Assembly: GCA_045604705.1 (NCBI GenBank) | Contig: JAZUOO010000021.1 | Location: 3,410 to 67,409 of the forward strand | Length of the DNA stretch: 64,000 nucleotides | Reading direction: 5' to 3' | From: Eubacteriales bacterium | GTDB lineage: Bacteria; Bacillota; Clostridia; Oscillospirales; CAG-382 | Shown here: positions 30,201 through 51,261 of the stretch, piece by piece | Layout of the letters: every line of letters begins with the position of its first letter | How positions within the stretch are numbered: the stretch's first letter is position 1 | Made by a program: the position numbers and the translations under genes | Notes under the pieces: generated by a model | Databases searched by the model: none | Told to the model about the DNA's origin: nothing | Seen by the model: only the letters and a program-made list of their open reading frames with translations

Positions 30201-30478
30201 AGCACAAGCACAATATCGGTAGGTTCTACAGAGCTCATCTGTCTTACCACACCTGTTGTATGTGCCGTAAGTGTAATGTCAATTGTTCCGTCGGAATTTG
30301 CTGTGGAGGTCTTGGTATAGATTATACCGCCCGCCTGATTTGTGTTTTCCTTTGTATCACTCTGCACAACCGTTGTTTCTTCCTGTGCCGTAGCAGAGAA
30401 AGTGATACCAGGAACAAGTGTCACTAACATAGAAAACGTTAATGTGCAGGCTAATAATTTCTTTACTCTTTTTTCCAT
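24245..30478 (-). CDS. Giant S-layer-anchored surface adhesin (VWA head, Flg_new/MucBP-like repeat stalk, 3 SLH domains)
   Basis: Signal peptide. VWA MIDAS motif DIVLVLDASGSMDD. About ten Listeria-Bacteroides-type repeats (Y.F.GW....F.MP..DV...G.F) alternating with Y.V.Y-type beta modules. A Gly7 linker. Three C-terminal SLH repeats (ITRAEVTAILFRLL; ITRAEFASFCARF; ITRAEAMTMINRVL). Confidence 0.85.
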   Translation of the reverse strand: MEKRVKKLLACTLTFSMLVTLVPGITFSATAQEETTVVQSDTKENTNQAGGIIYTKTSTANSDGTIDITLTAHTTGVVRQMSSVEPTDIVLVLDASGSMDDNYTTTRITGYNEATGSEYTYTTGWWFWEEEHTAYGLENTSSTYYINTGTEQEPVYTRVSYTGRDTNGFEMYEYSVGNSEVIIYPVLSGDISTDRQYSSYSVVQFYSATVDSQTIKKMKSLQDAVKTFIDATAQMNQGLEVDQMHTISIVKFANENYYNSTVPTVTEGNNRGYSQVVKNLTPVDSDGTAELKAAVDAISPNGATAVDYGLNLAQAVLMNRSAVNDEGAVDRKEVVIVFSDGSPTYNNGFQDSVANNAITVAGNMKSAADVTIYSVCIDTNADATDIDENINKFMHYVSSNYPNAKNMTTPGENGSINNGYYLTPDSTTSLLMIFESIIQEIDHPTITMGEEATMVDTISPYFDFENGNATEITLRTRAKTQNGWSEELEEDENLDYEISESGDRLTVNGFNFDENFISETGRGENNDFYGKQLVVSFKVIPDYDVIDAASVTLGDGILPTNSGFASLVNSEEIPAAEVTTPELETRQITYIVDENEYKTYKRFTGSDFTIDAEPTKEGYEFSGWTIDGEDVKPGDEFEMPNEDVEIIGVFTVNKYPVEYVYSGTTPADATDLSGTEYNGNPANAEVPYGSTVTIAPDATAENYTFSGWKPDNQSVVVTNGEFKMPDSPVRLIGSFTPITSSYKVIHKTETMEDGVYETRETDDKTAFAGSKAVALPKYYHGFTYDETAANVTEGTVTTENDLELILYYDRNEYEVTYDFTGDVPTKPDYSEEIDPPATKKHKFEEVVTVAENADEEGYKFLGWESLSTDATALETFSMPDNDVAFIGEFTANVDTSYSVEYYLETLTDNEFVLADNTVNYSNTGTTGTTVYANEKEFEGFYFDESNEYNVLSGKIAGNGSLVLKRYYKRNSYKLTYAYENPTQPGGAPDISNWEPETYKFGEEVEVKDDLTLDHFNFAGWHSTGYTVGNDTESFTMPARDVTLYGNFERIEGVAWVEKHYFQKLDGTYSYSEDPESDAPDYTFNHTGTAGDNAIAEPIKEIVGFELDTGHEKYSATSEINENGKTELRFFYKRKEYKVIYRYEPAEQPENAPDLSQLTRENVRYGTEDIDVAEKPELDGYSFDGWYPQTSGIPSSGTFEMPAHDVVFEGNFNPRSDTKYEVHHYLQNADGTYPDSTENINYHTGITGEKITAAKRNFPGYTFDYANPEEGIVDVNNLLVLKLYYKRTEYNVTYFVDGFVPDGVTAPQDAESPYRHGEKVELLDVLDAPEGYVFVGWTSVAQESDEDVVTIVGNEFTMPMHNVRLRGTFDAKTNTPYIIRHMTQKKDLNGYEIYSEAKRTGTTDEDITVYALTIPGFKNVTTVGEVVVSSKTEEILPDGSLVIEFFYDRNPHKITYEYEGTTPAGADEQLPEQENNVHYGKEVTVADAPSVPGYTFDGWNTSDAEIVDGEFTMPDKDVVLKGKFSSNLVDYTVNYWLQNVDAGDAFDENDYTLDSDSSYTKEALVGQHVEAETVPYTGFHVNSQESNSYGHVTVDPDTEEGNLVLNIYYDRNVYNVEYIYYGEQPENAPDLSELTIENVRYGTENIEVKEKLELEGYFFDGWYTRTANVVNNKFTMPNHDVSFLGRFIAQYAVSYDLNGGTGAEGVDYSTITVPAGAEITVKAKPTRSGYTFNGWKEGENTFNPDDTVTVDRNINFVAQWTRNGGGGGGGITTRYTLTYETNGGNKIAMEAYTSGTTVKLTKVPVKDGYVFDGWHLDESLTEDVDEVKMNKNITVYAAWVEDNGGAGSGHDTPDALDGEHHFAYIIGYPDDTVRPLEHITRAEVTAILFRLLKEDVRNENLASENPYDDIEEDAWYRTSVSTLTKMGIVFGRTETEFMPNEYITRAEFASFCARFDDSEFEVVDNFTDVEGHWAEAEIHEAAAHGWIRGYEDKTFRPDQFITRAEAMTMINRVLNRVPETIDDLHDDMIKWSDNSDESAWYYIAVQEATNSHEFEMKNNIYEKWINLSEVTDWTKYEP

Positions 30479-38851: not shown

Positions 38852-39385
38852 TCAATTAATTTGTTCACTTTTTATCTTTTTCCAATTTGCTATCATTGTT
38901 TTTCTACAATCAACATAATTAATAGTATTTAACTTCATAATAACAATCACGACTATAGTAAATATAAATACAAATGCGCTAAAAAGCAATTTTATACATA
39001 TGTTGTAATCTAACAGAAAGATTTTTGTAATAGACATTGTCGAACATAATATTGATAAAAAGTAATATAAAGAAATTGATCTCCAGTTTCTTTTCACGCT
39101 AAATAACTCATCATATTTTTGATGTCTACGTTCCCAATTATACTCATCTCCTTCCCGAAACACATACAAATAAGATGCAATTTTACAAATGTTTCTATTC
39201 TTACCTTCACAGGCAAAATATAACGGAATAATAGCGATATATGGAATCAAGCAATATAAAAAGTTTTGTTTATCCAACGCAAATGTCAATACTGAGATAA
39301 CAGCGACATATAAAGCCAAATTGTATTGTTTTATTGTATCGTAATTCTCTAAAATCTCGTTTCTAAGTAATTCATATTCTGACAT
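38852..39385 (-). CDS. Hypothetical multi-pass (about 4 TM) membrane protein
   Basis: Hydrophobic helices (LALYVAVISVLTFAL; CLIPYIAIIPLYFA; ISLYYFLSILCSTMSI; LLFSAFVFIFTIVVIVIM). AT-rich. ATG at 39385 lies behind GGGAGGTG. Confidence 0.6.
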   Translation of the reverse strand: MSEYELLRNEILENYDTIKQYNLALYVAVISVLTFALDKQNFLYCLIPYIAIIPLYFACEGKNRNICKIASYLYVFREGDEYNWERRHQKYDELFSVKRNWRSISLYYFLSILCSTMSITKIFLLDYNICIKLLFSAFVFIFTIVVIVIMKLNTINYVDCRKTMIANWKKIKSEQIN

Positions 39386-39495
39386 TTTCACACCTCCCAA
39401 ATTTTAAAAAGTATTTAGTAAAAGCGGCGACCGAAGTCATAGCTTAAAACAAGTATAAATGTAATATTTTTTAATGGTATTAATATGCGGGTATA

Positions 39496-39536
39496 TCAAC
39501 AGACGGATAACCCGTCAGTTTCTTTTCTGTTTACAT
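39496..39536 (-). pseudogene. 5' stub of a fourth ANL gene (ATG TAA ..EKKLTGYPSVD)
   Basis: It copies the stop/GGAGAAAACTGCA/ATG junction seen at 41277-41293, but codon 2 is TAA and homology ends after about 13 codons. Confidence 0.7.
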
Positions 39537-39549
39537 TGCAGTTTTCTCC

Positions 39550-41277
39550 TTATAGACTCTCTGCTTCTTTTTCTAGTGCTCTAAAATCAACTTTTCCAAC
39601 GGGCGTATGCGGCAATTCATCAACGAAGCAATATTCTGCAGGAATCATATATGTAGGCATGTTTTCGGCACATTGTTTAGAAAGGTCTTCAAGAATTACA
39701 TTAGTATCAGTTGTATCACCGTTCTTGACAATAAAAGCGACTGCTTCATAATAATCACTATTTTTCCGCTTTCTTCCAACAACACTACACTCGCTAACAT
39801 ATTGAGATTTTTTGAGAGCTCCCTCTACTAACATCGGGAAAATTTTTGCGGGTTGTCCTTCATGTGCTGTCATATAGATTCTGCGGATTCGACCTTCATG
39901 GAACAACAAGCCGTCCTCGGTAATATGACCTAAATCGCCTGTCCGAACCCAACGAACGCCTTTTTCATCAGTAATAATAATTTCGGAAGTCTCTTGGGGT
40001 TTATTATAATATCCCAACATTATAGACGGACTGCTAATCCATATTTCTCCTGTTTCATTATATCCTAATTCTTGTGAGGTTTCCGTATCTACGATTTTTA
40101 TAGTATTTGAAATCAACGGAATTCCCACGCTACCAATTGAATTTGCTCCCTTGAATGTAATAACAGCGGTTGCACTGAGTTCTGTCATTCCGTAACCTTT
40201 ACATACTTCATACTGACAGTTGTGTTCTGCGAGGAACTTATTGACATCCTGTTCTAAATTACATTCAACTGCATCACCACCAACACCAGGAGAGATGAGA
40301 AAGCTCATATCGATTTTTTTAGTCTTTTTATCAATTGTTAAATATTTCAAGTGGTCAACCAGAGCAGAGAAATGATGTGGTTTGTATTTAACAAATTGCT
40401 TTGGGAATCCTTTTGAATCAAATATTGGATAAAGTATTACTTCCAATCCATAAGAAAGTGTTGTGTGAGTTGCTAAACAAAGTCCGTACATAATGAACGG
40501 CGGCAAATCATTAAAATAGCGATGCTTTCTTTCAAAGGGAATACCTAAATATTGATATCCAAAAGCAACAGCATTGATGTTATCGTTTGATAACATAACA
40601 CCTTTCGGAGAACCCGTCGTACCACCCGTATGAGCCATTACACAACAGGCATTTTTTTCATAAGCCACACATTCGGGGTTTGCATCTTTGCCAATTGAAA
40701 TAAACTTCTTCCAATTAAGCACTTCATCGCCAAATTGTGGCGATTTGTTTTTTATTTTGTATATTGCCTTTACTAAAGACGGAAGAGAATCGGAAGGCGA
40801 AACAACAATTACATTTTTAACAGAGGTTCCTTGAACTGCCTTTTTGATAGCAGGATATGCAAGGTCAATAGTCAAAACGAATTGTGCATGTGATTCCACT
40901 ATATATTCATGTATTCCATCAATATTGGTTCGCGGGTCAACCATATTTGCGATTGCTCCCAAACGATTTAATGCATACAGTGTATATACCATTTCGGGCG
41001 TATTAACTGTACATACTATTACAATATCGCCTTTCTTTACTCCTAATGCAGAAAAGGATTTTGTCGCCTTATCAATACCTTCAAAAACTTGTTTGTATGT
41101 GAATTTGCGACCATAGTAATTAATGGCGGTATCATTAAGATGATCCTTATTGTTTTTCCACAGTAATTCATACATTGTACATTCCGGCAGTTTGGCACTA
41201 ATTGCTTCGTCGCTATAATATTTCAACCACGGCTTGTCGATGGACGGATAACCCGTCACTTTCTTTTCTGTTTGCAT
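39550..41277 (-). CDS. ANL-superfamily adenylate-forming enzyme (acyl/aryl-CoA synthetase-like), copy 3
   Basis: AHTGGTTGSPKGVMLS (A3), GYGMTE (A5), TGDLGHITEDG (A7), PHTPVGKVD (A10 Lys). N-terminus MQTEKKVTGYPSIDKPWLKYY is shared with copy 2. Confidence 0.85.
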   Translation of the reverse strand: MQTEKKVTGYPSIDKPWLKYYSDEAISAKLPECTMYELLWKNNKDHLNDTAINYYGRKFTYKQVFEGIDKATKSFSALGVKKGDIVIVCTVNTPEMVYTLYALNRLGAIANMVDPRTNIDGIHEYIVESHAQFVLTIDLAYPAIKKAVQGTSVKNVIVVSPSDSLPSLVKAIYKIKNKSPQFGDEVLNWKKFISIGKDANPECVAYEKNACCVMAHTGGTTGSPKGVMLSNDNINAVAFGYQYLGIPFERKHRYFNDLPPFIMYGLCLATHTTLSYGLEVILYPIFDSKGFPKQFVKYKPHHFSALVDHLKYLTIDKKTKKIDMSFLISPGVGGDAVECNLEQDVNKFLAEHNCQYEVCKGYGMTELSATAVITFKGANSIGSVGIPLISNTIKIVDTETSQELGYNETGEIWISSPSIMLGYYNKPQETSEIIITDEKGVRWVRTGDLGHITEDGLLFHEGRIRRIYMTAHEGQPAKIFPMLVEGALKKSQYVSECSVVGRKRKNSDYYEAVAFIVKNGDTTDTNVILEDLSKQCAENMPTYMIPAEYCFVDELPHTPVGKVDFRALEKEAESL

Positions 41278-41290
41278 TGCAGTTTTCTCC

Positions 41291-43021
41291 TTATAATTTT
41301 TCTGCTTCTTTCTCAAGTGCTCGGTAATCTACTTTACCGATCGGGGTTAATGGCATTTTTTCAATAAAGATAAAATCTACCGGTTGAACATACTCAGGCA
41401 GCTCATTTTTACACAGTTCAAATAATTCGTTTTTTGCTACATCAGCATTACTTCCATCTTTCAGAACGGCAAAAACTATTGGCAGGTGTCCTTGCACGTG
41501 ATCTTTATCAACCGTACCCACTGCACAACAAGTTTCTATTGCTTTGTGCATTGAAACAACATCCTCGATAAACGGGGGAAAGACCTTAAATCCGTCGTAT
41601 CGGATAATCATTCTTTTAAAACGACCGTTGATGTAGATACAGCCATCTTCATCAACATAACCTAAGTCGCCCGAATGAATCCACATTTTGCCATCTGAGT
41701 GCTTTTTGATTACTTTATCAGTTTCTTCTTGCTTTCCATAATATCCCGTCATCATAGTGGGTGTGCAAATACACATCTCACCGGATTCTCCAAACGGCAG
41801 TTCTTTACCACTTTCGGTATCAAAAGCTGCAACGATGGTTTGTGCGAAAGGAATACCCGCACTACCGGGTTTGTTGATTTCCTCAAAAGCAAAAGTAGCC
41901 GTTGCGCTTGCTTCTGTCATACTATAGCCTTTGCTGAGGTGAATGTTGGCATTGTGTTCTGCAAAAAAGGAATTGACTTTCTTTTCAAATTCAACTAGCG
42001 CCTTATCGCCGCCAACGAGTACAACCTTGATGCAAGAAAGATCTTTGCCTTTGATCTTAGGCTCATCCATCAGTCCTTCAAAATATGTAGGCACACCCAT
42101 TATGCCTGCAGGTTGATACTTGAGAATCAAATCTGCAAAATCTTTTGGATCGAACTTAGGAATAATGATAGACTCCCAACCGTGTGTCAAAGCGATATGA
42201 ATACCCAAAACCATACCGTATGCAATAAACGGCGGCATAATATTTAAGAAGCGATCTTGACGTTCTAATCGCAAAGGAGAATTTTTAATTTGCTCTGCTG
42301 AAGAATTAAAATTATCGTTGGTTAGCATAACGCCTTTAGGCAGACCTGTTGTTCCACCGGTATGTTCAATTACGCAGCACTTATTAGGCTGATATTCGGC
42401 AACTGCATAGGTCAAATCTTGCCCATTGGCAATCATATCCGTCCAAAGAATACAATTGCTTCCGAACTTAGGTACATTACCTTTTAATTTGTTTACAACG
42501 TTAAAAATGAACTTTTTAGGCTGCGGTAAGGAGTCTGCGGGAGATGTAATGATAATCTTTTTGACAGCAGTTCCGTTAATAGCTTTTTCGATTTTAGGGT
42601 ATGCAATGTCAATACACAAAACATAGTTTGCATCAACTTCCACAATGTACTCTTTGATACCTTCTGTGCTTGTTCTCGGATCTACCATATTAGCAACAGC
42701 ACCTATATGGTTCAAGGCATAAACCGCATAGATTGTTTCAGGAGTTGTAACTGTTGCCATAACAACAATATCATCTTTCTTTATGCCAATAGATGTAAAC
42801 GCTTTTGCCGCTTTCTCTATATTCTCAAATATTTCCTGAAACGAGATTTTACGGTCAAAATATCGAAGTGCAATATCGTTGAGATGCTCTTTATTGCTAT
42901 CTTGAAGATACTCGAATATCGTACACTCAGGCATCGTAGCATTTATGGCTTCATCTGAGTAATATTTCAACCAAGGTTTATCAATAGACGGATAACCCGT
43001 CAGTTTCTTTTCTGTTGGCAT
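41291..43021 (-). CDS. ANL-superfamily adenylate-forming enzyme, copy 2
   Basis: EHTGGTTGLPKGVMLT, GYSMTE, SGDLGYVDEDG, PLTPIGKVD. Confidence 0.85.
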   Translation of the reverse strand: MPTEKKLTGYPSIDKPWLKYYSDEAINATMPECTIFEYLQDSNKEHLNDIALRYFDRKISFQEIFENIEKAAKAFTSIGIKKDDIVVMATVTTPETIYAVYALNHIGAVANMVDPRTSTEGIKEYIVEVDANYVLCIDIAYPKIEKAINGTAVKKIIITSPADSLPQPKKFIFNVVNKLKGNVPKFGSNCILWTDMIANGQDLTYAVAEYQPNKCCVIEHTGGTTGLPKGVMLTNDNFNSSAEQIKNSPLRLERQDRFLNIMPPFIAYGMVLGIHIALTHGWESIIIPKFDPKDFADLILKYQPAGIMGVPTYFEGLMDEPKIKGKDLSCIKVVLVGGDKALVEFEKKVNSFFAEHNANIHLSKGYSMTEASATATFAFEEINKPGSAGIPFAQTIVAAFDTESGKELPFGESGEMCICTPTMMTGYYGKQEETDKVIKKHSDGKMWIHSGDLGYVDEDGCIYINGRFKRMIIRYDGFKVFPPFIEDVVSMHKAIETCCAVGTVDKDHVQGHLPIVFAVLKDGSNADVAKNELFELCKNELPEYVQPVDFIFIEKMPLTPIGKVDYRALEKEAEKL

Positions 43022-43033
43022 AATTTTGCTCCT

Positions 43034-44779
43034 TTATAATTCAATCAAATCGTCGATATCGCCTTTAATGAACTTAATATCTCTTTTGCCGGAGTGCGCA
43101 CTTGGAAAACCATCCCACACGCAGAAACTATGCGGTACAGCTTCAGGCTGCTTCATAACTTTCTCAACAACCTTTTGAATTTCGGCAAAATACTCCATCT
43201 GTTTTTCAGGGGTTTGCTTTAAGACAACATTAGTTTCATTTTCCCAAACAATGTGAGCAACCAATTTGTCTTGATATTCCGGATGTGTTTGAATCTCACA
43301 CAGTTTTACTTTTTCAAAGGTCAAAATTGCTCTCTCAATATCAAAATTATAAATCTGTTTGCCTTCAATTACGGAATAATCAGATTTTCTTCCTAATACA
43401 ACAAGGCTACCGTCCTTATTCATATAGCCAATGTCACCTGTTTTGCTCCACCGTTCACCATTTTCGTCAACATAGAAAAACTCATTAGTGGCATCAGGAT
43501 TATTGAAATACTCAATCATACCAATTTCGGTTTTAACCAAAATGTTACCACGCTCACCGTATTTCAACTCTTTAAAGTTATCGTCAAAAATAGCAACAGT
43601 AGTAATATCGGGAAGAGGAATGCCCGATGCGGTGTTTGAAAATTTATGTGATGTTATATCCGTTGTTACGGTTGCACCGCACTCACATTCACCGTAACCA
43701 TTGAGCAATCTAGCATTTGAACCATGAGTTTTGAACACGCTCTCAATGTTTGCTATATCCTTTTCTGTCAGCGGTTCTCCACCTTCAACAGGGTATTTCA
43801 AGAAAGCCAATGACTTGCCTTTAAGCAATTTTAAACTCTTCTCAAAAGTAAAACCTTGATACATCGAGGTATTGGTTAATATGTATTCGGGTTTGAACTT
43901 TAAAACATTTTTCACGAATATGGTGTGGTCAAACCTTGGGTCAATACAAACCCTAACACCAAACGAAAGAGGAAAGTTAATACCTAAGCTAAGTCCTGTA
44001 GAGTGCCAAGGCGGGATGTTTTGATAAACCTTTTGTTTCCTTGAAGTGTCAAAGCCTGAATTGCCATAAGCATTGATTAATTTTTGGAAACTATCAACTG
44101 ACAACACGATTCCCTTGGATGCACCTGTTGTACCGCTTGAATAAACCATTGCCTGTGCTTTTTGAGGCTCGTAAGAATCAGCAGTTACATCGTTTTGGCA
44201 AGCTCCATTCTTGATAAAGGTTTTCCATGCAACTTCGTTGGTGCTATTGTTGATTTTGTACTTTGGTGTTACAAATCGCAAAACCGAAGAGTTCATCATT
44301 GGCAAAACAATAACTTTTTTGTCGCTGTCTTTATTAAGAGATTCCTTGAACTTTGGCAAGAACTTATCCACTATAATGATAAGTTTGCTTTTGCATTCAT
44401 CAATACGAGCCATAAGTTCTTCGGGAGTGTAGAAAGGCGAAATCACGTTGGCAACCGCACCGATTTTGCTGATAGCATAGAAAGCATAAATTACTTCAGG
44501 TGTGGTAGTTGAGCAAATAGTTACATAATCGCCCTTCTTTACACCATATGCTACCATTGACTTGGCAACAATATCGGTATTCTTTATTAGTTCGCCAAAA
44601 CTGATCTTTGCCCCGAAATATTCAAGGGCGATTTCGCTCGGATAATTAGCATTGTTTTTTATTAGCCCTTGATACGGGGTCGTGTTTAAGAAAATACTAC
44701 GCTTTTCTACACCCTCATAAAAGCGTTCCCAAGGTTTGTCTATTGAAGGATAACCCGTCAAATTCTTTTCTTTAGGCAT
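43034..44779 (-). CDS. ANL-superfamily adenylate-forming enzyme, copy 1 (most divergent)
   Basis: VYSSGTTGASKGIVLS, NGYGECE, TGDIGYMNKDG, PSAHSGKRD. Confidence 0.85.
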   Translation of the reverse strand: MPKEKNLTGYPSIDKPWERFYEGVEKRSIFLNTTPYQGLIKNNANYPSEIALEYFGAKISFGELIKNTDIVAKSMVAYGVKKGDYVTICSTTTPEVIYAFYAISKIGAVANVISPFYTPEELMARIDECKSKLIIIVDKFLPKFKESLNKDSDKKVIVLPMMNSSVLRFVTPKYKINNSTNEVAWKTFIKNGACQNDVTADSYEPQKAQAMVYSSGTTGASKGIVLSVDSFQKLINAYGNSGFDTSRKQKVYQNIPPWHSTGLSLGINFPLSFGVRVCIDPRFDHTIFVKNVLKFKPEYILTNTSMYQGFTFEKSLKLLKGKSLAFLKYPVEGGEPLTEKDIANIESVFKTHGSNARLLNGYGECECGATVTTDITSHKFSNTASGIPLPDITTVAIFDDNFKELKYGERGNILVKTEIGMIEYFNNPDATNEFFYVDENGERWSKTGDIGYMNKDGSLVVLGRKSDYSVIEGKQIYNFDIERAILTFEKVKLCEIQTHPEYQDKLVAHIVWENETNVVLKQTPEKQMEYFAEIQKVVEKVMKQPEAVPHSFCVWDGFPSAHSGKRDIKFIKGDIDDLIEL

Positions 44780-44790
44780 AATTTTGCTCC

Positions 44791-45318
44791 TTATATCTTA
44801 TAATCTTTGTTTGCTAAAAAGTAGCGCGGATATACAAGCGTCTTACTAACGGTATGTTTTTTCTTAGAATGACCATTGTGATAAATAACGGTGATTTCAA
44901 CATTGTATAAAGCTGTCAAAACTTTGTCACGATTTCTTTGGCACTTGGGGTATATAGCGCAAAGCACAACTTCATCCGATGGCATGAGGTCTCGTCCTGC
45001 AATTTCTAAGGAATATCCTTTCCAGTATTGATTAAGTTTGGGCATAAATGTGATTAGGTTGTTTCGCATTTCCCCATTCTTTTTGACCTGTATGGAATCA
45101 ATAATCAAAATTCCCGAACCGCGATTTGCAATAACGACAGCAAGGTTGTCATTGTGGTATCGTTCAATTATTTTGCATTGAGGTATAGCATCCTTGCGTC
45201 TATGGTGTTCTTCAAACAAAAAGTAGCCCATCGCAGAACAAAATGTTGCGCATGCTACGATTAGAGTAAGTAAGTCAATAAGTACGGATGTTTCCATATT
45301 TACCTCCATAAAATTCAT
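44791..45318 (-). CDS. Hypothetical N-terminally membrane-anchored protein
   Basis: One TM helix (VLIDLLTLIVACATFCSAMGYFLF) followed by a soluble domain of about 130 aa. ATGA overlap with the acyltransferase gene indicates translational coupling. Confidence 0.6.
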   Translation of the reverse strand: MNFMEVNMETSVLIDLLTLIVACATFCSAMGYFLFEEHHRRKDAIPQCKIIERYHNDNLAVVIANRGSGILIIDSIQVKKNGEMRNNLITFMPKLNQYWKGYSLEIAGRDLMPSDEVVLCAIYPKCQRNRDKVLTALYNVEITVIYHNGHSKKKHTVSKTLVYPRYFLANKDYKI

Positions 45319-46148
45319 TTCAATCTCTTATTAAACAAAAATGCATTTTGCGTTGTAGGGTGGATAGCGCTTAAATGAGCAAAAGCATCATTATAATTTA
45401 CCAACTTCGGAAGGCGATAAATGCAAGATTCTTCGTAATTCCAATCAAGTGGTGGGTAATCACGAACAACTTGGAACATCAAATTTCGCTCTTTTTCTAA
45501 GTCCCAAAAAGCACGATTTACTTGATTGCGGGAAATGAAATCCCACCGCAAGGTTGACATTGCATCGCGTAGAGCGACGATACCTTGTTGCTTGCTTATG
45601 AAGGTTTCTGCGTTCAGGGGTTCCCCGAAACGAACTTTGCAGATCTTTCGCTCTCTATCATAATCAAGTACCATAGGAATAATCTGTACTTTTGTCCGTT
45701 GTGCGACTTCTATAATGCCCCACCGCATAGGGAGCATTAACAAATTATCCGTCAAATTCCAAGTGGCTTCAGGAAACCACAGAATTGGGATACCTTTCTT
45801 TAAGTACGCAACAATACGTTCCTTTGAAAGAGCAGAGCTTTCCTTGCTTTTTCTATCTACCCATATTGCACCGGTAAGAAAGAAAAAGATCTTATCCACA
45901 AAAGCAAGATTTTGCTTTCCAATTAATGTGTAACAATGCTGCTTTACTGCTCTGAGTGCAAGCGGGGTATCCGAGAAAGCTGAGTGATTGCAGGCAAAAA
46001 TAATTGGATTGTCCGAATTTGCGATATAATCATTTTCGATTATAATTTTGTATTTAACTTTAGTTTTGCTTAGCAACATAGTTACAGGATAAAACATAGC
46101 TCGTAACCATATTGCAAAAACAGAATCTGTGAGTCTCTTATTTTTCAT
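45315..46148 (-). CDS. PlsC/LPLAT-family acyltransferase
   Basis: HX4D motif (NHSAFSD) and FPEATW (the FPEGT-type block), as in 1-acyl-sn-glycerol-3-phosphate acyltransferases. Confidence 0.8.
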   Translation of the reverse strand: MKNKRLTDSVFAIWLRAMFYPVTMLLSKTKVKYKIIIENDYIANSDNPIIFACNHSAFSDTPLALRAVKQHCYTLIGKQNLAFVDKIFFFLTGAIWVDRKSKESSALSKERIVAYLKKGIPILWFPEATWNLTDNLLMLPMRWGIIEVAQRTKVQIIPMVLDYDRERKICKVRFGEPLNAETFISKQQGIVALRDAMSTLRWDFISRNQVNRAFWDLEKERNLMFQVVRDYPPLDWNYEESCIYRLPKLVNYNDAFAHLSAIHPTTQNAFLFNKRLK

Positions 46149-46161
46149 AGAGTTTTCCTCG

Positions 46162-46203
46162 TTTCAATCTCTTATTAAATAAAAATGCATTTTGCATTGT
46201 GGA
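46162..46203 (-). pseudogene. 3' stub of a second acyltransferase copy
   Basis: About 38/42 nt identical (hand count) to the last 14 codons of the 45315-46148 gene (..QNAFLFNKRLK). It lies directly upstream of that gene's start. Confidence 0.6.
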
Positions 46204-46233
46204 GCTGATGGTATTCATATTTCAGACTCCAAG

Positions 46234-46259
46234 TACCACATAATATCGATTATGTGGTA
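46234..46259. promoter_or_regulatory. Candidate tyrosine-recombinase site 1: TACCACATAAT-ATCG-ATTATGTGGTA
   Basis: Perfect 11-bp inverted arms around a non-palindromic centre. Confidence 0.6.
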
Positions 46260-46301
46260 TATGTATAAAATTACCATTTTAACATACATATACTATTATA
46301 T

Positions 46302-46330
46302 ATAGTATCATAAATGGTGTTTTTTGTCAA
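46302..46330 (-). promoter_or_regulatory. Near-consensus promoter inside the putative invertible segment, facing the acyltransferase/ANL operon
   Basis: Minus strand: TTGACA (46330-46325), 17-nt spacer, TGaTACTAT (46310-46302). Confidence 0.5.
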
Positions 46331-46472
46331 TGATTTGACCAAATTATAAACGTTTCGACTATGTAGATTTACAGCCAAGACATACTTCTAAAAGACCAAC
46401 AACAAATCTAAATGTTTTTGGTCTTCTTTGCATGCAAATATTATAAGTAAAATTCAGCAGAATTACGGCATA

Positions 46473-46498
46473 TACCACATAATCGATATTATGTAATG
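46473..46498. promoter_or_regulatory. Candidate recombinase site 2: TACCACATAAT-CGAT-ATTATGTAATG (centre inverted relative to site 1)
   Basis: Same left arm as site 1. The centre CGAT is the reverse complement of ATCG. The right arm has 2 mismatches and overlaps the recombinase stop codon. Confidence 0.6.
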
Positions 46499-47334
46499 TA
46501 CTTAATTAGCCCTAATTGCTCTACTTGCCTCTTATGCACTTCACCAGTTTCCATCGTATAAATCCTCGTTGTATTCACACTTGAATGTCCGAGGATATCG
46601 GCAAGTCTTACAATGTCTTTCTGGAGCGAATAATAAGTGCGAGCGAAAAGATGGCGAAGGTTGTGTGGGAACACTTTATCCTTTGAAACCCCAGCGGATT
46701 CGCAAAGCTTTTTCATATCAGACCATATATTGCTTCTGTCAAGCGGTTTGCCTGTTCGGGATACGAACACGGAGCCGCTTGATATTTTTTGCTCTCGAAT
46801 ATATCTTGTGAGAACTTTGCACAGTGCTTTGGGTAAGAACACCTGACGCAGTTTGCCTTTGCAGTTGATACTTGCAATGCCTGTGTTCACAGCGGCAACA
46901 GTTATGAAACGAAGCTCGGACACACGAATACCTGTTGAGCATATAGTCTGCATCAGTAGGTAAAGCCGTTCATTCTTTTTTGACTTCGCCGCATCGAGAA
47001 GTCTTTCGTATTCCGCTTTTGTAAGCTCCTTTTCTTTTGAAGCAAATATTTGTTTCTGTATTTTCAAAGATTTAACCTTACAGTCGTACCATTCATTGTA
47101 GGTAAAAAAGCTGTTGAGGGATGAAAGGACTGAATTAACACTAGCGGGCTTGTAGTTTTCTACAAGGTATGCCTTATATTCGAGAACTGTCTGTTTATTC
47201 ACCTCTCTGCCGCAGAGCCAAGCGAGAAAAGCACATATATCACGGATATACTTTTCAAGCGTAGCATCGCTCTTTTCTTCGTTTATCAGATAATTTTTAA
47301 AGTTTTTAATAAGTTTTTCAGTGATTTTTTTCAT
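46489..47334 (-). CDS. Tyrosine recombinase (XerC/D-like small integrase or invertase)
   Basis: Catalytic signature TGIRVSEL (R), HNLRHLFA (H-x-x-R), LGHSSVNTTRIY (H..Y). N-terminal SAM-like core-binding domain. Confidence 0.85.
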   Translation of the reverse strand: MKKITEKLIKNFKNYLINEEKSDATLEKYIRDICAFLAWLCGREVNKQTVLEYKAYLVENYKPASVNSVLSSLNSFFTYNEWYDCKVKSLKIQKQIFASKEKELTKAEYERLLDAAKSKKNERLYLLMQTICSTGIRVSELRFITVAAVNTGIASINCKGKLRQVFLPKALCKVLTRYIREQKISSGSVFVSRTGKPLDRSNIWSDMKKLCESAGVSKDKVFPHNLRHLFARTYYSLQKDIVRLADILGHSSVNTTRIYTMETGEVHKRQVEQLGLIKYIT

Positions 47335-47450
47335 TATTTGACAACTCCTTTGTTTTGGTTTACTGTATATATTTTACCATATCACAAAGCTCTCATTCTA
47401 AACTGTGGTCATGAGTTGTCAATGATTTACATTATTATGTTGATTTCGTA

Positions 47451-48266
47451 TTAAAAATTCAAGTCATGCCTAACCTCTGCCTCATAGTAGTTATCAATAG
47501 TTGACGGAGCGTTAAAAAGGCTTGCAAGGAGATACTGTCTTATGTTTCGTATTTTGGTAGAGTTCTTTTTTAGACAGTCGAGGACATACTCGATATGCTC
47601 TGAGCGAAGTTTTAGAAGTTTATCCTTTACAAACTTTCTTGCATATTCATTGCCCGATATACGAACAGTTTCGGTTGTGCCGGAGACTGTTTCAGCGAGG
47701 ATATCCACAATTTCGTCAAGCTGTTCTTTGCGGTGATTTTTACAAAGGTAATTGTACTCTATATTTTCCTTTATCGCTTCACGGTTATGCTCGACATCAT
47801 TTACGGCAGGGATAGGATATGATTCGATACTTGATACATCAGTAATTGATGAATCAGTATTTGATATATTAGTATTTAATTGCGTTGGATTTTCCAACAT
47901 AGGCTTTTCCAATGTAGGTTTGTCCAGCATTGGATTTTCCAACGTAGGTTTTTCCAATGTAGGCTGGGTAGTCTGCGGACACTCGTAAATAACATATTCA
48001 TTTCCCGAAAGCTGTCCCTTTGAGTTTCTCGCTCGACCTCTTACTATGTAGCCTTCTCGCTCAAGCTCTCTAACAGCCTCTCTGATGGCGTCAATTCCTT
48101 CTTTGTTGATGTAGGCAAGTCCTTTTAATGAGAAGTCCCAATCGTCGTTTAAGGACAGCATTTGCGACAACAATCCCTTTGCTTTAAGCGACAGATTTTT
48201 ATTCCTCAAATGGTGGTTTGACATTACCGTATAATCTTTTGTTTTTTCTATCCTGAATACAGACAA
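47451..48266 (-). CDS. Rep-like winged-HTH protein (replication-initiator-type) with a pentapeptide-repeat linker
   Basis: The N-terminus YTVMSNHHLRNKNLSLKAKGLLSQMLSLNDDWDFSLKGLA..AIREAVRELEREGYI is typical of mobile-element initiator-like HTH proteins. The linker reads PTLEKPTLENPMLDKPTLEKPMLENP. Confidence 0.6.
   Translation of the reverse strand: MSVFRIEKTKDYTVMSNHHLRNKNLSLKAKGLLSQMLSLNDDWDFSLKGLAYINKEGIDAIREAVRELEREGYIVRGRARNSKGQLSGNEYVIYECPQTTQPTLEKPTLENPMLDKPTLEKPMLENPTQLNTNISNTDSSITDVSSIESYPIPAVNDVEHNREAIKENIEYNYLCKNHRKEQLDEIVDILAETVSGTTETVRISGNEYARKFVKDKLLKLRSEHIEYVLDCLKKNSTKIRNIRQYLLASLFNAPSTIDNYYEAEVRHDLNF
47889..47963. repeat. Five tandem 15-bp coding repeats (PTLEK/PMLEN units)
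   Basis: GATTTTCCAACATAG / GCTTTTCCAATGTAG / GTTTGTCCAGCATTG / GATTTTCCAACGTAG / GTTTTTCCAATGTAG. Confidence 0.8.
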
Positions 48267-48373
48267 ATAATTATCGCCTCCTTACTAACTCCAATGCTTT
48301 GTATGTTTAACTGTAACACCTCGAAACCTCAAATTGCACAAGCACAACTTCGCTCTCTTTTTTCTCCAAGGCA

Positions 48374-48481
48374 TCACCGATACTTGTTCTCATGTGGAGC
48401 TTTTTCGTACTGTTTTACCTCTGCGTAGGTGCAACCACAATTCTTGCAAGGGGATATGCCCCGAACCTCAAAATCGCACAT
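48374..48481 (-). CDS. Possible 35-aa Cys-rich small protein (MCDFEVRGISPCKNCGCTYAEVKQYEKAPHENKYR)
   Basis: Not in the ORF track because it is too short. The ATG is preceded by GGGAGGAG with spacing of about 9 nt. Four Cys residues, including CxxCxC. Confidence 0.35.
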   Translation of the reverse strand: MCDFEVRGISPCKNCGCTYAEVKQYEKAPHENKYR

Positions 48482-48589
48482 ATTTTGAGCCGATTTCTCC
48501 TCCCTCCGCAGTACCCTCCGACCAACTTGATTTTTTGAAAAATTCTAAGGTCTAAAACCCCTGATATACAAGGCTTTTCGGGGTGTCAG

Positions 48590-48658
48590 GACCAGGAGAA
48601 ATTGACTTTTTTATATAGCTTCAAAAACACATTTCAAAAAAGTACTTTTCTCCTGGTC
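48590..48658. repeat. Perfect 12-bp inverted repeat GACCAGGAGAAA / TTTCTCCTGGTC separated by 45 nt
   Basis: Read directly. It begins 14 nt beyond the toxin stop codon. Confidence 0.85.
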
Positions 48659-48671
48659 TTTTGCTTAAATT

Positions 48672-49025
48672 TCAAGAACAAATATGTATATCTATCACGG
48701 CTTTGCAATCACAATTTAAGTACTTACGTGCCTTCTCAAATGCTCGTAAATTATCCTTTTTATCGTGCTTGTAAAAACCATAGAGAAGTACAATATCTTT
48801 ATCCGAAAGTGTAAACAAAATCCTTGCCATATTGCCTGATGCCTTTGCTCGGAGCTCATACAGATCGTTGTATTTGCCGATTGAAACGTGTTTTACATAG
48901 GGTTCTGTCAGCGGATTTTTGTCGTCAGCAAGATACATAAGCACAAAGCCGATTTTCTTTCTTGTCTTATCGTCGGCTTCTTTCAAAAACTCCTTGACTG
49001 CATTACTCGCAAATATCTTTCTCAT
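48672..49025 (-). CDS. gp49/HigB-like (RelE/ParE superfamily) toxin, with no visible cognate antitoxin
   Basis: The pattern ..LYELRAKASGNMARILFTLSDKDIVLLYGFYKHDKK..FEKARKYL matches the phage gp49-like toxin family. ATG at 49025 lies behind GAGGAGG and overlaps the integrase 3' end. Confidence 0.65.
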   Translation of the reverse strand: MRKIFASNAVKEFLKEADDKTRKKIGFVLMYLADDKNPLTEPYVKHVSIGKYNDLYELRAKASGNMARILFTLSDKDIVLLYGFYKHDKKDNLRAFEKARKYLNCDCKAVIDIHICS

Positions 49026-50217
49026 TGTTTTCCTCCTCATTGTTAAACGCCGCAAAGCTTACAGCACTCTCCAAAGCCTGCCTTGCCATACCGCCCATTT
49101 TCTCTGTAATATGTGTGTAATAGCGGAGCGTAAATTCAAGTTTTGAATGTCCTAAAGTTTCCTGCACATATCTCGGGCTTATTCCGCTTTCTGCAAGAAC
49201 TGTTGCGTAGGTGTGCCGCAAATTGTGGAATTTGAACGGTATATCAAGGTCGGCTTTAAGTGTTCGTGACATAAACTTGACACTATTTGTGGTAAGCATT
49301 TCGCCGTTGACCTTGACATTTACAAAGTCTGTAATTTCCATCAGTTTTTCCTTGTTTCGCACAAGTCGTTCCGTCACAAAATTTCTCTTGTATCCGTCAC
49401 CGTAAAATGCCTTGCTTTCCTCTTGTTTAGATTTAAGGTTCTTAAGATAAGTACAGAAGCTGTCGGTGATGTTTACACTTCTGTATGCGTTGGTTGTTTT
49501 AAGAGGGCAGAAGCACCACTTTTTGTCCTGAAACAATAACTGCTTATGCACCTTGATTTTGCGGTTTTCAAAGTCAATATCGCTCCACTGAAGTCCGAAG
49601 ACCTCACTTTCACGAAGACCCGTGTTAAGTGCGATATAAAACGGCACGATAACATTAGTCCCCTGCAAACGTTGTTCCATTGCACGAAGCTCATCGGGCG
49701 TGTACGCTCTTATCTCGCCTTTGTGTCTTGGATCGGGCGGAGGTGTTATCTCGCAGAAAATGTCCTTTTTGAGATACTGCCGTTTGTGTGCGTAACCGAA
49801 AAGCACTTTCAAAAACTTATACAGACCCTTGACAAATTCATCGCTGAGATAAGTACGCTTTTCGTTGAGAAAGTCGTTTATCATATTTGCGTTAATCTGG
49901 TACATATAAAAGCTGCCGAACCGTTCTGCATAATGATTCTTGTAAAGCGACTTATAACGCACAATGGTTGCATAGGCTCTTGTTGCCGGGGCTTCGTTTT
50001 CGATAAATTCCGTGTAGACCTCGGTAAAGGTGATTTTCTTGTTCTCCACATAATCGCCCGTGTTGTTGTAGAGGTAGAGAACATCATTGAGAGCTTTTGC
50101 GGCTTCCTTTTTGGTTTTGTAACCGCTTCGCTCAATCTGATTTCTTTTGCCGCCTGCCGCACCGAACTCAACTCTGTACGACCAGGTAGCTCCCTTTTTT
50201 CTGATACTTCCTTGCAT
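49003..50217 (-). CDS. int: Tyrosine integrase (phage-integrase family)
   Basis: N-terminal arm-binding-type MQGSIRKKGATWSYRVEF. Catalytic TGLRESEV, HNLRHTYAT, LGHSKLEFTLRYYTH. Start at 50217 lies behind AGGAGG. Confidence 0.9.
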   Translation of the reverse strand: MQGSIRKKGATWSYRVEFGAAGGKRNQIERSGYKTKKEAAKALNDVLYLYNNTGDYVENKKITFTEVYTEFIENEAPATRAYATIVRYKSLYKNHYAERFGSFYMYQINANMINDFLNEKRTYLSDEFVKGLYKFLKVLFGYAHKRQYLKKDIFCEITPPPDPRHKGEIRAYTPDELRAMEQRLQGTNVIVPFYIALNTGLRESEVFGLQWSDIDFENRKIKVHKQLLFQDKKWCFCPLKTTNAYRSVNITDSFCTYLKNLKSKQEESKAFYGDGYKRNFVTERLVRNKEKLMEITDFVNVKVNGEMLTTNSVKFMSRTLKADLDIPFKFHNLRHTYATVLAESGISPRYVQETLGHSKLEFTLRYYTHITEKMGGMARQALESAVSFAAFNNEEENNEKDICE

Positions 50218-50437
50218 AAAAATATCCTCCTGAATTAAAAAATTAAATTGTGTGTTTTTAAGGGCAAAAATACCCCACAATTTTCACACCGATTTTATCA
50301 AATTAAAAACCCAAATCTTAATTTTTTGGCAAAAAATTTTCCCACGAAACGATTTTTTTACACCCCGAAAACCCTTATAGCAAGGGCGTTTCGAGAGATT
50401 CCGTGGGAAATTATTTTTTCGGGCGATTTTTCTCTCA

Positions 50438-50457
50438 TTTCCCACGGATTTCCCACG
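50438..50457 (+). repeat. TTTCCCACGGATTTCCCACG, candidate arm-type sites (integrase-proximal arm)
   Basis: Identical to 31111-31130. Further copies: TTCCCACG at 50339-50346 and an inverted CCGTGGGAAA at 50401-50410. Confidence 0.8.
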
Positions 50458-50475
50458 GGACAAAAAAATACATAT

Positions 50476-50521
50476 AAATAAAAAAGAAACACGACTATCT
50501 AAAATCAGATAATCGTGTTTC
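50476..50521 (-). terminator. Rho-independent terminator after rubrerythrin
   Basis: 14-bp stem GAAACACGA(C/T)TATC. The minus strand is followed by CTTTTTTATTT. Confidence 0.7.
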
Positions 50522-50615
50522 GTGATTATGAAATAAAGCTACGCTTTATTTATTAAAAAGCCTTATTTTAAGCCATTCTCAGAGGATATTTAACTTTATT
50601 TTTTCGTATCTAAAA

Positions 50616-51203
50616 TTAGTTAAAATATCTCTTTAGGAGACCCTCGAAGCCTTTTCCATGCCGAGCCTCGTCCCTCGCCATCTCATGCACAGTATCGTGA
50701 ATAGCATCAAGACCGTTTTTCTTAGCGCAAGCAGCAAGGTCAAACTTACCCTTTGTTGCACCGTACTCACAGTCAACTCTCCACTTAAGGTTGTCCTTTG
50801 TGGTAGCCTTCATGTTGGGCTCGAGATCCTCGCCGAGAAGCTCTGCAAACTTTGCTGCGTGCTCTGCTTCCTCGTATGCTGCCTTTTCCCAATAGAGACC
50901 TACTTCCGGATAACCCTCTCTGTGTGCGATTCTTGCCATGCAAAGGTACATACCTACCTCAGCGCACTCGCCGTTGAAGTTAGCCATAAGCTGTTCGAAT
51001 ATGTACTTCTTGTCTTCCTCGGAAATATCGGGATTGTTCTTTACTGTTTTTGCATATACGCCGTATTCGTGCTCAGCCGCAAGAGCTGCTCCCTCTTCCA
51101 TAATGTTAAACTTTTCAGCAGGAACCTTACATACGGGACACTTTTCGGGAGCTGCATCGCCCTCGTGAACATAACCGCAAACTGAACATACAAACTTTTT
51201 CAT
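50616..51203 (-). CDS. rbr: Reverse rubrerythrin (N-terminal rubredoxin-like domain plus diiron four-helix bundle)
   Basis: [17 protein letters not shown] at the N-terminus, then ExxH diiron motifs (EEAEHAAKF; RDEARHGKG). Confidence 0.9.
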
Positions 51204-51261
51204 GATAACTTTCCTCCAAAATTCAATATAATTTTTTATATATTTTAGGTTTTTCCTTTAC

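Follow-up and report, generated by a model that had tools for sequence, protein, structure and literature searches.

The fimS switch of Escherichia coli is a short promoter segment between inverted repeats that is flipped by the cis-encoded tyrosine recombinases FimB/FimE, and its orientation also affects the recombinase transcript. Here we report a locus of comparable build in a 64-kb stretch of contig JAZUOO010000021.1 (GenBank assembly GCA_045604705.1, Eubacteriales bacterium), the whole of which is called the window. The gene of a 281-aa Xer-like tyrosine recombinase is transcribed toward a non-coding, promoter-bearing segment bounded by an inverted repeat (IR) and ends within the proximal arm of that repeat, while the distal arm precedes an operon of five genes led by an acyltransferase. 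We read this locus as a working ON/OFF invertible promoter switch that is now ON, with a probability of roughly 85%.

In Clostridioides difficile, tyrosine-recombinase inversion involving RecV sets the short regulatory segments cwpV, flgB, cmrRST and pdcB to ON or OFF (PMC5903667). The closest described group of switches comes from a survey of the hCom2 gut community with PhaseFinderDC (Microbiome 2025, PMC11892184; bioRxiv 10.1101/2024.06.01.596983). In that survey, inverton group 139 has 33 members from 17 strains, of which 32 belong to Clostridia, and its IR motif had not been published before. No other group shows so strong a link to a recombinase group nearby, here the tyrosine 'invertase group 35', and the recombinase gene is found at most 5 kb away and oriented so that the switch cannot drive it (PMC11892184). 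The supplement of the preprint gives the IRs ACATAATGATGATTATGTGGTAA, ACATAATGTTAATTATGTTGTA and ACAACATAATATTAGTTATGTTGTA for this group, of which the last comes from Clostridium sp. D5 and has arms of 26 nt with 205 nt between them, and flipping is reported as proven by reads in isolates, for example with 102 forward and 254 reverse reads in one sample (bioRxiv 10.1101/2024.06.01.596983). Our link to group 139 is made through these supplement IRs; a genome scan for Clostridium sp. D5 or Intestinimonas returned neither.

As the IR of the window carries the motif of group 139, its switch is, judged by that motif, a further member of a read-validated family in which inversion was shown in cultured strains. 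What is unusual is the lipid- or envelope-acylation cargo and the location on an integrative island, the class of switch being already catalogued and mechanistically unstudied. Our literature search found no text with the IR motif in this context and no biochemical study of the recombinase.

Architecture of the locus

The repeat finder returned a perfect 26-nt IR with 205 nt between its arms, and this is the sole perfectly complementary IR of at least 20 nt with arms at most 3 kb apart in the whole window. The motif ACCACATAATN4ATTATGTGGT, allowing up to 3 mismatches, had exactly 2 matches in the window against 0.00 expected from 100 shuffles. The parts of the locus are as follows.

46238..46263: distal (cargo-side) IR arm, ACATAATATCGATTATGTGGTATATG
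46469..46494: proximal (recombinase-side) IR arm, its last 6 nt holding the C-terminal Thr codon of the recombinase gene and its stop codon
46235..46258: distal core site, ACCACATAA-TATCGA-TTATGTGGT, two 9-bp arms around a 6-bp asymmetric spacer (46244-46249)
46474..46497: proximal core site, ACCACATAA-TCGATA-TTATGTAAT, with the spacer (46483-46488) being the distal spacer reverse-complemented
46264..46468: segment interior, 205 bp, non-coding, longest open reading frame (ORF) 39 aa
46302..46330, minus strand: predicted invertible promoter, -35 TTGACA (46330-46325), 17-nt spacer, extended -10 TGaTACTAT (-10 at 46307-46302), facing the cargo (ON)
46392..46425, minus strand: hairpin, AAGACCAAAAACA-N8-TGTTGTTGGTCTT, then TTTTAG
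46489..47334, minus strand: Xer-like tyrosine recombinase, 281 aa, with a SAM-like N-domain and a Phage_integrase catalytic domain
47395..47422, minus strand: promoter-like site of the recombinase gene, TTGACA-16-TAGAAT
46149..46237, minus strand: leader from the distal repeat to the first cargo gene, with the ribosome-binding site GAGGAAAA (read directly)

The spacers TATCGA (distal) and TCGATA (proximal) are mutual reverse complements and the core sites are inverted relative to each other at a centre-to-centre distance of 239 bp; the invertible segment measures about 240 bp, or 257 bp including the repeats. No Rfam family was found within 45800-47600.

An earlier note on this DNA had placed two sites here, TACCACATAAT-ATCG-ATTATGTGGTA at 46234-46259 and TACCACATAAT-CGAT-ATTATGTAATG at 46473-46498, and on re-reading the sequence both positions and letters were as given. 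The inverted orientation proposed for them stands, as both belong to the perfect 26-nt IR, which is more extensive than had been claimed. Their arm/spacer/arm structure was likewise upheld, but the proposed 11-4-11 division was not, since a comparison of 70 loci favours a 9-6-9 division, ACCACATAA-N6-TTATGTGGT. The same note had rightly described the overlap of the second site with the recombinase stop codon (46489-46491) and the lack of a gene in the intervening DNA, where only ORFs of up to 39 aa occur. The minus-strand promoter that it had pointed out (TTGACA-17-TGaTACTAT, 46330->46302, toward the acyltransferase start at 46148) was recovered by our promoter scan. A conserved terminator-like hairpin in the segment is a feature absent from that note.

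With its 257 bp and terminal inverted repeats the segment resembles a miniature inverted-repeat transposable element (MITE). That such an element was inserted here by chance is, in our view, next to impossible, since the flanks (ACC and AAT) form no target-site duplication, the position relative to the recombinase stop codon is fixed across the family, and no further copies are present in the window.

Conservation of the architecture in related loci

We compared the locus with 80 species-representative genomes having 69-95% identical recombinases (set 1), the hosts of which were uncultured Oscillospiraceae, Acutalibacteraceae, Ruminococcus and similar gut Clostridia, and with 80 more distant loci (set 2), making 160 protein-based loci in both sets. 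In set 1, a perfect 17-28-nt IR beginning 0-40 nt past the stop codon was present in 72/80, mostly with a gap of 190-240 nt. The IR layout was found in 61/80 loci of set 2, with the same core in 56 of those 61, and 15 of the 19 loci without the repeat reach a contig end. A reciprocal search by the DNA site alone returned at least 120 loci, and among the first 80, which were examined, 67 had a recombinase homolog (42-77% identity), with the site at most 400 nt from the recombinase 3' end in 65 of those 67. The isolates among the DNA-site loci listed were [Clostridium] symbiosum ATCC 14940, a Lacrimispora strain and Clostridium sp. MCC353. Viral contigs searched with the core site gave no match.

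The sites follow a simple rule. CATAA-N6-TTATG was present in 70/70 site-centred loci, within ACCACATAA-N6-TTATGTGGT, and the 6-bp spacer varied among these 70 loci yet was always the exact reverse complement between partners. A variable, partner-matched spacer of this kind is, as far as site comparison can tell, the signature expected of the crossover region of a tyrosine recombinase. The first downstream gene was co-directional in most loci, with its start 0-130 nt beyond the distal repeat. Copies within the same assembly mostly had different spacers (12/14 assemblies), which is a weak test, as chance predicts the same and metagenome-assembled genomes (MAGs) can be mixed.

Apart from these, 13 genome or metagenome loci that match the window IR ACATAATATCGATTATGTGGTA were set aside, the spacer being shared by coincidence and the recombinases being only 65-70% identical (DNA). 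At L132:6606-6981 (= L236), a 65-nt IR places a tandem pair of core sites at either end of the segment, an arrangement that might permit nested or alternative inversions. Some MAGs or genomes with the labels Gastranaerophilales, Hydrogenedentes, Bacteroidaceae and Holdemania (L159, L166, L022/L113, L263, L288, L239) also contain the site or the recombinase, which reflects either horizontal transfer or binning errors.

Orientation of the segment

Homologous segments aligned either directly or reverse-complemented, and the signed orientation graph had 0 inconsistent edges. Both orientation classes were present in 7 of the 11 segment clusters of the signed similarity graph. Between loci L010 and L011, the recombinase flank is collinear (88%) and the repeat-bounded 269 nt are reversed (82%).

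The sister locus P0020 encodes a recombinase 91% identical to that of the window and residue for residue the same on contigs from different samples. Its switch is spanned by seven contigs that agree with one another to 99.8-100% over 1 kb on each side; five of them have the 225-nt segment in the direct orientation and two have it flipped, and it is 99.6% identical once flipped. One short P0020 contig stops exactly at the last base of the proximal repeat. The cargo of this sister locus (L217-L223) consists of an SPFH/Band-7 zinc-ribbon protein and a 1515-aa protein with FHA plus FtsK/SpoIIIE (EssC-like) ATPase, which hints at a phase-variable secretion or envelope system.

Assembly breaks point in the same direction. 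Across the 160 loci, contigs ended within 400 nt downstream of the recombinase gene in 27 cases vs 7 within 400 nt upstream (p = 8e-4), an excess expected if mixed orientations break assemblies, and in the scaffold of C. symbiosum ATCC 14940 a run of N stands immediately past the site. The inverton reading of the earlier note thus finds all of its structural predictions in place, with relatives occurring in both orientations and an IR motif that is that of inverton group 139.

The palindromes might instead be repressor operators or dif/cer-like resolution sites at which nothing inverts, an alternative which had been named beforehand as one that would overturn the inverton reading. Each site is indeed palindromic with a dif-like 6-bp centre and the recombinase is Xer-like. 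However, resolution needs one site per replicon, acting between direct copies in a dimer, whereas the anatomy with its two inverted sites is conserved in >130 loci, and many genomes have several of them; a spacer that varies yet matches its partner is nothing that an operator needs; and the segment occurs in both orientations. The recombinase also remained far below all Xer cut-offs, as curated XerA, XerC, XerD and XerS models gave 147, 117, 135 and 69 bits against cut-offs of 220, 335, 330 and 267, none of which was reached. Paired inverted sites, matched variable spacers and the two orientations contradict this alternative, and we consider it very improbable.

Promoters, hairpin and proposed mechanism

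Promoters were called by sequence consensus only. One near-consensus promoter per segment was present in 73/73 segments (72 close relatives and the window), directed toward the cargo (ON) in 19 loci, the window among them, and toward the recombinase (OFF) in 54. The antisense transcription into the recombinase gene that the earlier note expected after flipping agrees with the OFF state of these 54 loci. The family consensus is aAATcATTGACa-17-TGnTATAAT (71 loci), and the -10 element ends about 25-40 nt from one repeat across related segments. As side observations, AAATCATTGACAA is common to the invertible promoter (46324-46336) and the recombinase promoter (47416-47428) of the window, and an element AAATCATTGAC is kept in the invertible promoters of 71 loci as well as in several recombinase promoters; AAATCATTGAC could be an UP-like element or the site of a common regulator.

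The hairpin at 46392-46425 lies between the promoter and the recombinase gene and has on the minus strand a dG of -19.8 kcal/mol (z -4.95). A homologous hairpin with a T-rich tail and a dG below -10 was present upstream of the promoter in 63/72 loci, vs 6/72 shuffled controls. From its fold and position, it is likely the terminator of the recombinase transcript and an insulator of the switch. The stem sequence AGACCAATG...CATTGGTCT is conserved beyond pairing (46392-46425 and homologous positions in L001-L079), and a few compensatory stem changes were noticed by eye (L024, L033, L067); besides being a terminator, the hairpin may also be a protein-binding palindrome.

In the mechanism that we propose from the site anatomy and from knowledge of the family, the 281-aa recombinase (46489-47334) would bind the 9-bp arms of the two inverted core sites ACCACATAA-N6-TTATGTGGT, and strand exchange within the identical 6-bp spacers (TATCGA / TCGATA) would invert the DNA between them. 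The segment would carry as its load one strong sigma-70-type promoter with a hairpin terminator upstream of it. In the present ON state, the recombinase transcript would stop at the hairpin and the invertible promoter would drive the five-gene operon. In the inverted OFF state, the promoter would face the 3' end of the recombinase gene and give antisense transcription, and the hairpin would be positioned between the recombinase gene and the operon. As the repeat is perfect, inversion would leave the recombinase ORF unaltered. We infer that the window copy still flips and that the adjacent recombinase is responsible; termination at the hairpin, antisense RNA over the recombinase gene in the OFF state and the function of the cargo are presumed in the same way.

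The recombinase and the probable activity of the window copy

The recombinase matches Phage_integrase (PF00589) at 1.2e-30, and its closest solved relatives are archaeal XerA and E. coli XerD. The catalytic residues R135, K159, H222, R225, H248 and Y257 are present, aligned with XerA and invariant among the homologs in the alignment. The Fim-invertase models NF007370 and NF007371 gave 35.1 and 25.1 bits and their cut-offs of 221 and 222 were not reached. Homologs in the databases number >8000 and are nearly all unnamed; in plasmid and phage collections the recombinase is annotated only generically, as 'tyrosine-type recombinase/integrase'. The gene has its own promoter-like site and ribosome-binding site.

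Several observations weigh against a window switch that is still in use. Exact look-ups of the window recombinase, acyltransferase and DUF6017 protein returned no other contig, and a flipped copy of the window locus was not found by exact-protein and IR scans of genome and metagenome collections. A related segment was present in just one locus (L004, 78%), and there it is oriented as in the window. The outer arm of the proximal site, which falls within the end of the recombinase ORF, is degenerate, being TTATGTAAT vs TTATGTGGT with 2/9 positions off consensus. Decayed one-site relatives (L012, L213-L216) show that the family does lose function. A weaker plus-strand promoter-like match (TTAACA-16-TATAGT, 46279-46306) could, going by its consensus elements, give some expression in the flipped state.

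The main rival explanation is accordingly a locked or fossil switch, in which the architecture is inherited from an active family, the recombinase is silent or inactive or the degenerate arm blocks synapsis, and the operon is constitutively ON; the absence of a flipped copy, the imperfect arm and the decayed relatives are what speaks for it. However, the 26-nt repeat is perfect though the interior is only 78% identical to that of the nearest relative, and a perfect repeat beside a diverged interior argues for continuing use. The intact catalytic residues, the recombinase gene's own promoter and ribosome-binding site, and the many active-looking relatives that likewise have imperfect outer arms also stand against a locked copy, which we hold to be unlikely, though the least so of the alternatives to a working switch.

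In the decayed relatives themselves (L012:6846 and L213-L216 at ~3346), the proximal site and a truncated OFF-facing promoter are left, with a dockerin-domain gene directly next.

Cargo operon and possible exchange of cargo

Five tightly packed cargo genes lie downstream of the recombinase on the same strand.

45315..46148, minus strand: cargo gene 1, PlsC/LPLAT-type acyltransferase (PF01553)
44791..45318, minus strand: cargo gene 2, 175 aa, N-terminal hydrophobic segment, without a family match
43034-44779, minus strand: cargo gene 3, FadD-like AMP-binding (ANL) enzyme, paralogous to the products of genes 4 and 5
41291-43021, minus strand: cargo gene 4, FadD-like AMP-binding (ANL) enzyme
39550-41316, minus strand: cargo gene 5, FadD-like AMP-binding (ANL) enzyme

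There was no PADLOC match among these genes. Acyltransferases 78-81% identical to that of the window sit in operons with TIR-domain proteins and AMP-binding enzymes. The 175-aa protein was considered as a counterpart of the TIR-domain protein, as it occupies the same slot as the TIR protein of the related operons, yet the two are unrelated and this candidate was rejected. One such operon (L306:761-7839) stands behind a 279-aa recombinase of the present family, where a perfect IR of 23 nt encloses 246 nt, and another (L308:1629-8834) behind a small serine recombinase that has an imperfect IR of 27 nt at its flanks, which suggests that the same type of cargo is placed under two unrelated types of invertase.

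Across the family, the cargo is varied and often envelope-related, including SPFH/zinc-ribbon, ABC transporters, VWA, SLH, cohesin, LRR and collagen-like proteins. The phase-variable control put forward in the earlier note was retained, but its description of the cargo as 'metabolic' was not, as the gene content of the window operon seems to fit envelope or lipid acylation better.

For the most part, the loci are homologous only across the gene, the segment and about 70 nt of upstream sequence, and this homology ends at the repeats. The window and L004 match only over 47428..46238; the match with L002 spans 51227..46472, with another segment and other cargo; and cargo is shared in only 11 of the 250 locus pairs with ≥85% identical recombinase genes. 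This pattern would suit sites whose main role is to capture or exchange cassettes or to move the 1.2-kb recombinase unit, much as in integrons or transposons, with inversion as a side reaction. We find this explanation quite improbable, since a search of the upstream boundary of the conserved unit gave no third site, the paired sites are in every case inverted and would yield inversion rather than excision, and the integron integrase model TIGR02249 gave 56 bits, short of its cut-off of 265. Besides, the conserved promoter and terminator in the segment, and both orientations in near-isogenic contigs, are what an invertible promoter switch predicts.

Island context

The locus lies in a low-GC integrative island of about 19.6 kb (30868-50505), bounded by the 22-nt direct repeat AAGAAACACGACTATCTAAAAT (30868, 50484). 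Three further genes of the island lie upstream of the recombinase.

49003-50280: integrase, 425 aa
48672-49055: Gp49/HigB-like gene
47451-48266: DUF6017/HTH gene

The same island is present beside the same rubrerythrin gene in two Oscillospiraceae-like MAGs (L002, L003) at 88-90% identity. It contains candidate anti-phage genes, namely PDC-S06 (AAA_13 ATPase fused to S24 peptidase, 34564-37317) and PDC-S01 (AAA_14/DUF4143, 37406-38656). Two imperfect IRs were also seen, one of 20 nt (48567-48586 / 50360-50379, 90% complementary) around the integrase region and one of 37 nt (32659-32695 / 33041-33077, 76% complementary) in the island. Just outside the island, 24245-30478 encodes a surface protein of 2077 aa that combines VWA, SLH and Listeria-Bacteroides repeat domains.

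Significance

The five-gene acyltransferase/ANL operon is probably expressed in only part of the population, which bears on the reading of metagenomic gene presence as function. The locus ties an unannotated 'integrase' family of >8000 homologs to a defined DNA site and a function in gut Clostridia, in which invertons are much less studied than in Bacteroides. If confirmed, 9-bp arms with a free, partner-matched 6-bp spacer could supply orthogonal recombination sites for anaerobe genetics. What appears to be a genuine phase-variation switch was correctly recognised here from the raw sequence alone; a specialist would be only moderately surprised, since switches of this class have been published before.

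A wider picture can be sketched, which we offer tentatively and regard, taken as a whole, as possible but doubtful. The unit of about 1.2 kb, with its own promoter, recombinase, two sites and terminator-promoter segment, might be a portable phase-variation cassette that spreads among gut Clostridia and mobile elements. Its hypervariable 6-bp spacer might act as an address that keeps copies in the same genome from recombining together, and its sites might be the breakpoints of cargo swapping. In the window, such a cassette might have put an envelope/lipid-acylation operon, on an island that bears defence genes, under stochastic ON/OFF control. Acyltransferase/TIR/ANL operons standing independently behind tyrosine and serine invertases would then hint at a costly surface-modification or anti-phage function.

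Comparison with known systems

Like fimS, the window has a short promoter-bearing segment between IRs beside a tyrosine recombinase gene. Unlike fimS, it has one recombinase and not two, and its repeats are 26 nt with a dif-like core, whereas those of fimS are 9 bp. The recombinase appears to work like FimB/FimE but is not a member of that family, its scores being below the cut-offs. The arrangement also differs from that of RecV, which acts in trans on several scattered switches, whereas each switch here has its own adjacent recombinase.

The Xer/dif systems (XerC/D, archaeal XerA, XerH, XerS) are the closest relatives in sequence and structure and likewise have inverted arms around a 6-bp centre. 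In contrast to these systems, the window has two inverted sites beside the gene and not one at the replication terminus, and the predicted outcome is inversion and not dimer resolution. With the Bacteroides Tsr-type switches the locus shares the setting of gut-commensal invertons, a local tyrosine recombinase, control of surface or envelope functions and, sometimes, mobile-element genes, but it differs from them in phylum, IR motifs, promoter type and recombinase clade.

The likeness is closest with group 139. The window locus is absent from the group 139 data set and differs in its host, an uncultured Oscillospiraceae-like bacterium, in its setting on an integrative island and in its acyltransferase/ANL cargo. 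The survey, in its accessible parts, catalogues the group without a dissection of the 9-6-9 core, the partner-matched spacers or the terminator-promoter cassette. The window IR ACATAATATCGATTATGTGGTATATG has the same motif (of the ACATAAT-N4-ATTATGTGGTA type), the recombinase adjoins the switch in an orientation in which the switch cannot drive it, and the 26-nt IR with a 205-nt interior in a Clostridia host is exactly as in the Clostridium sp. D5 example.

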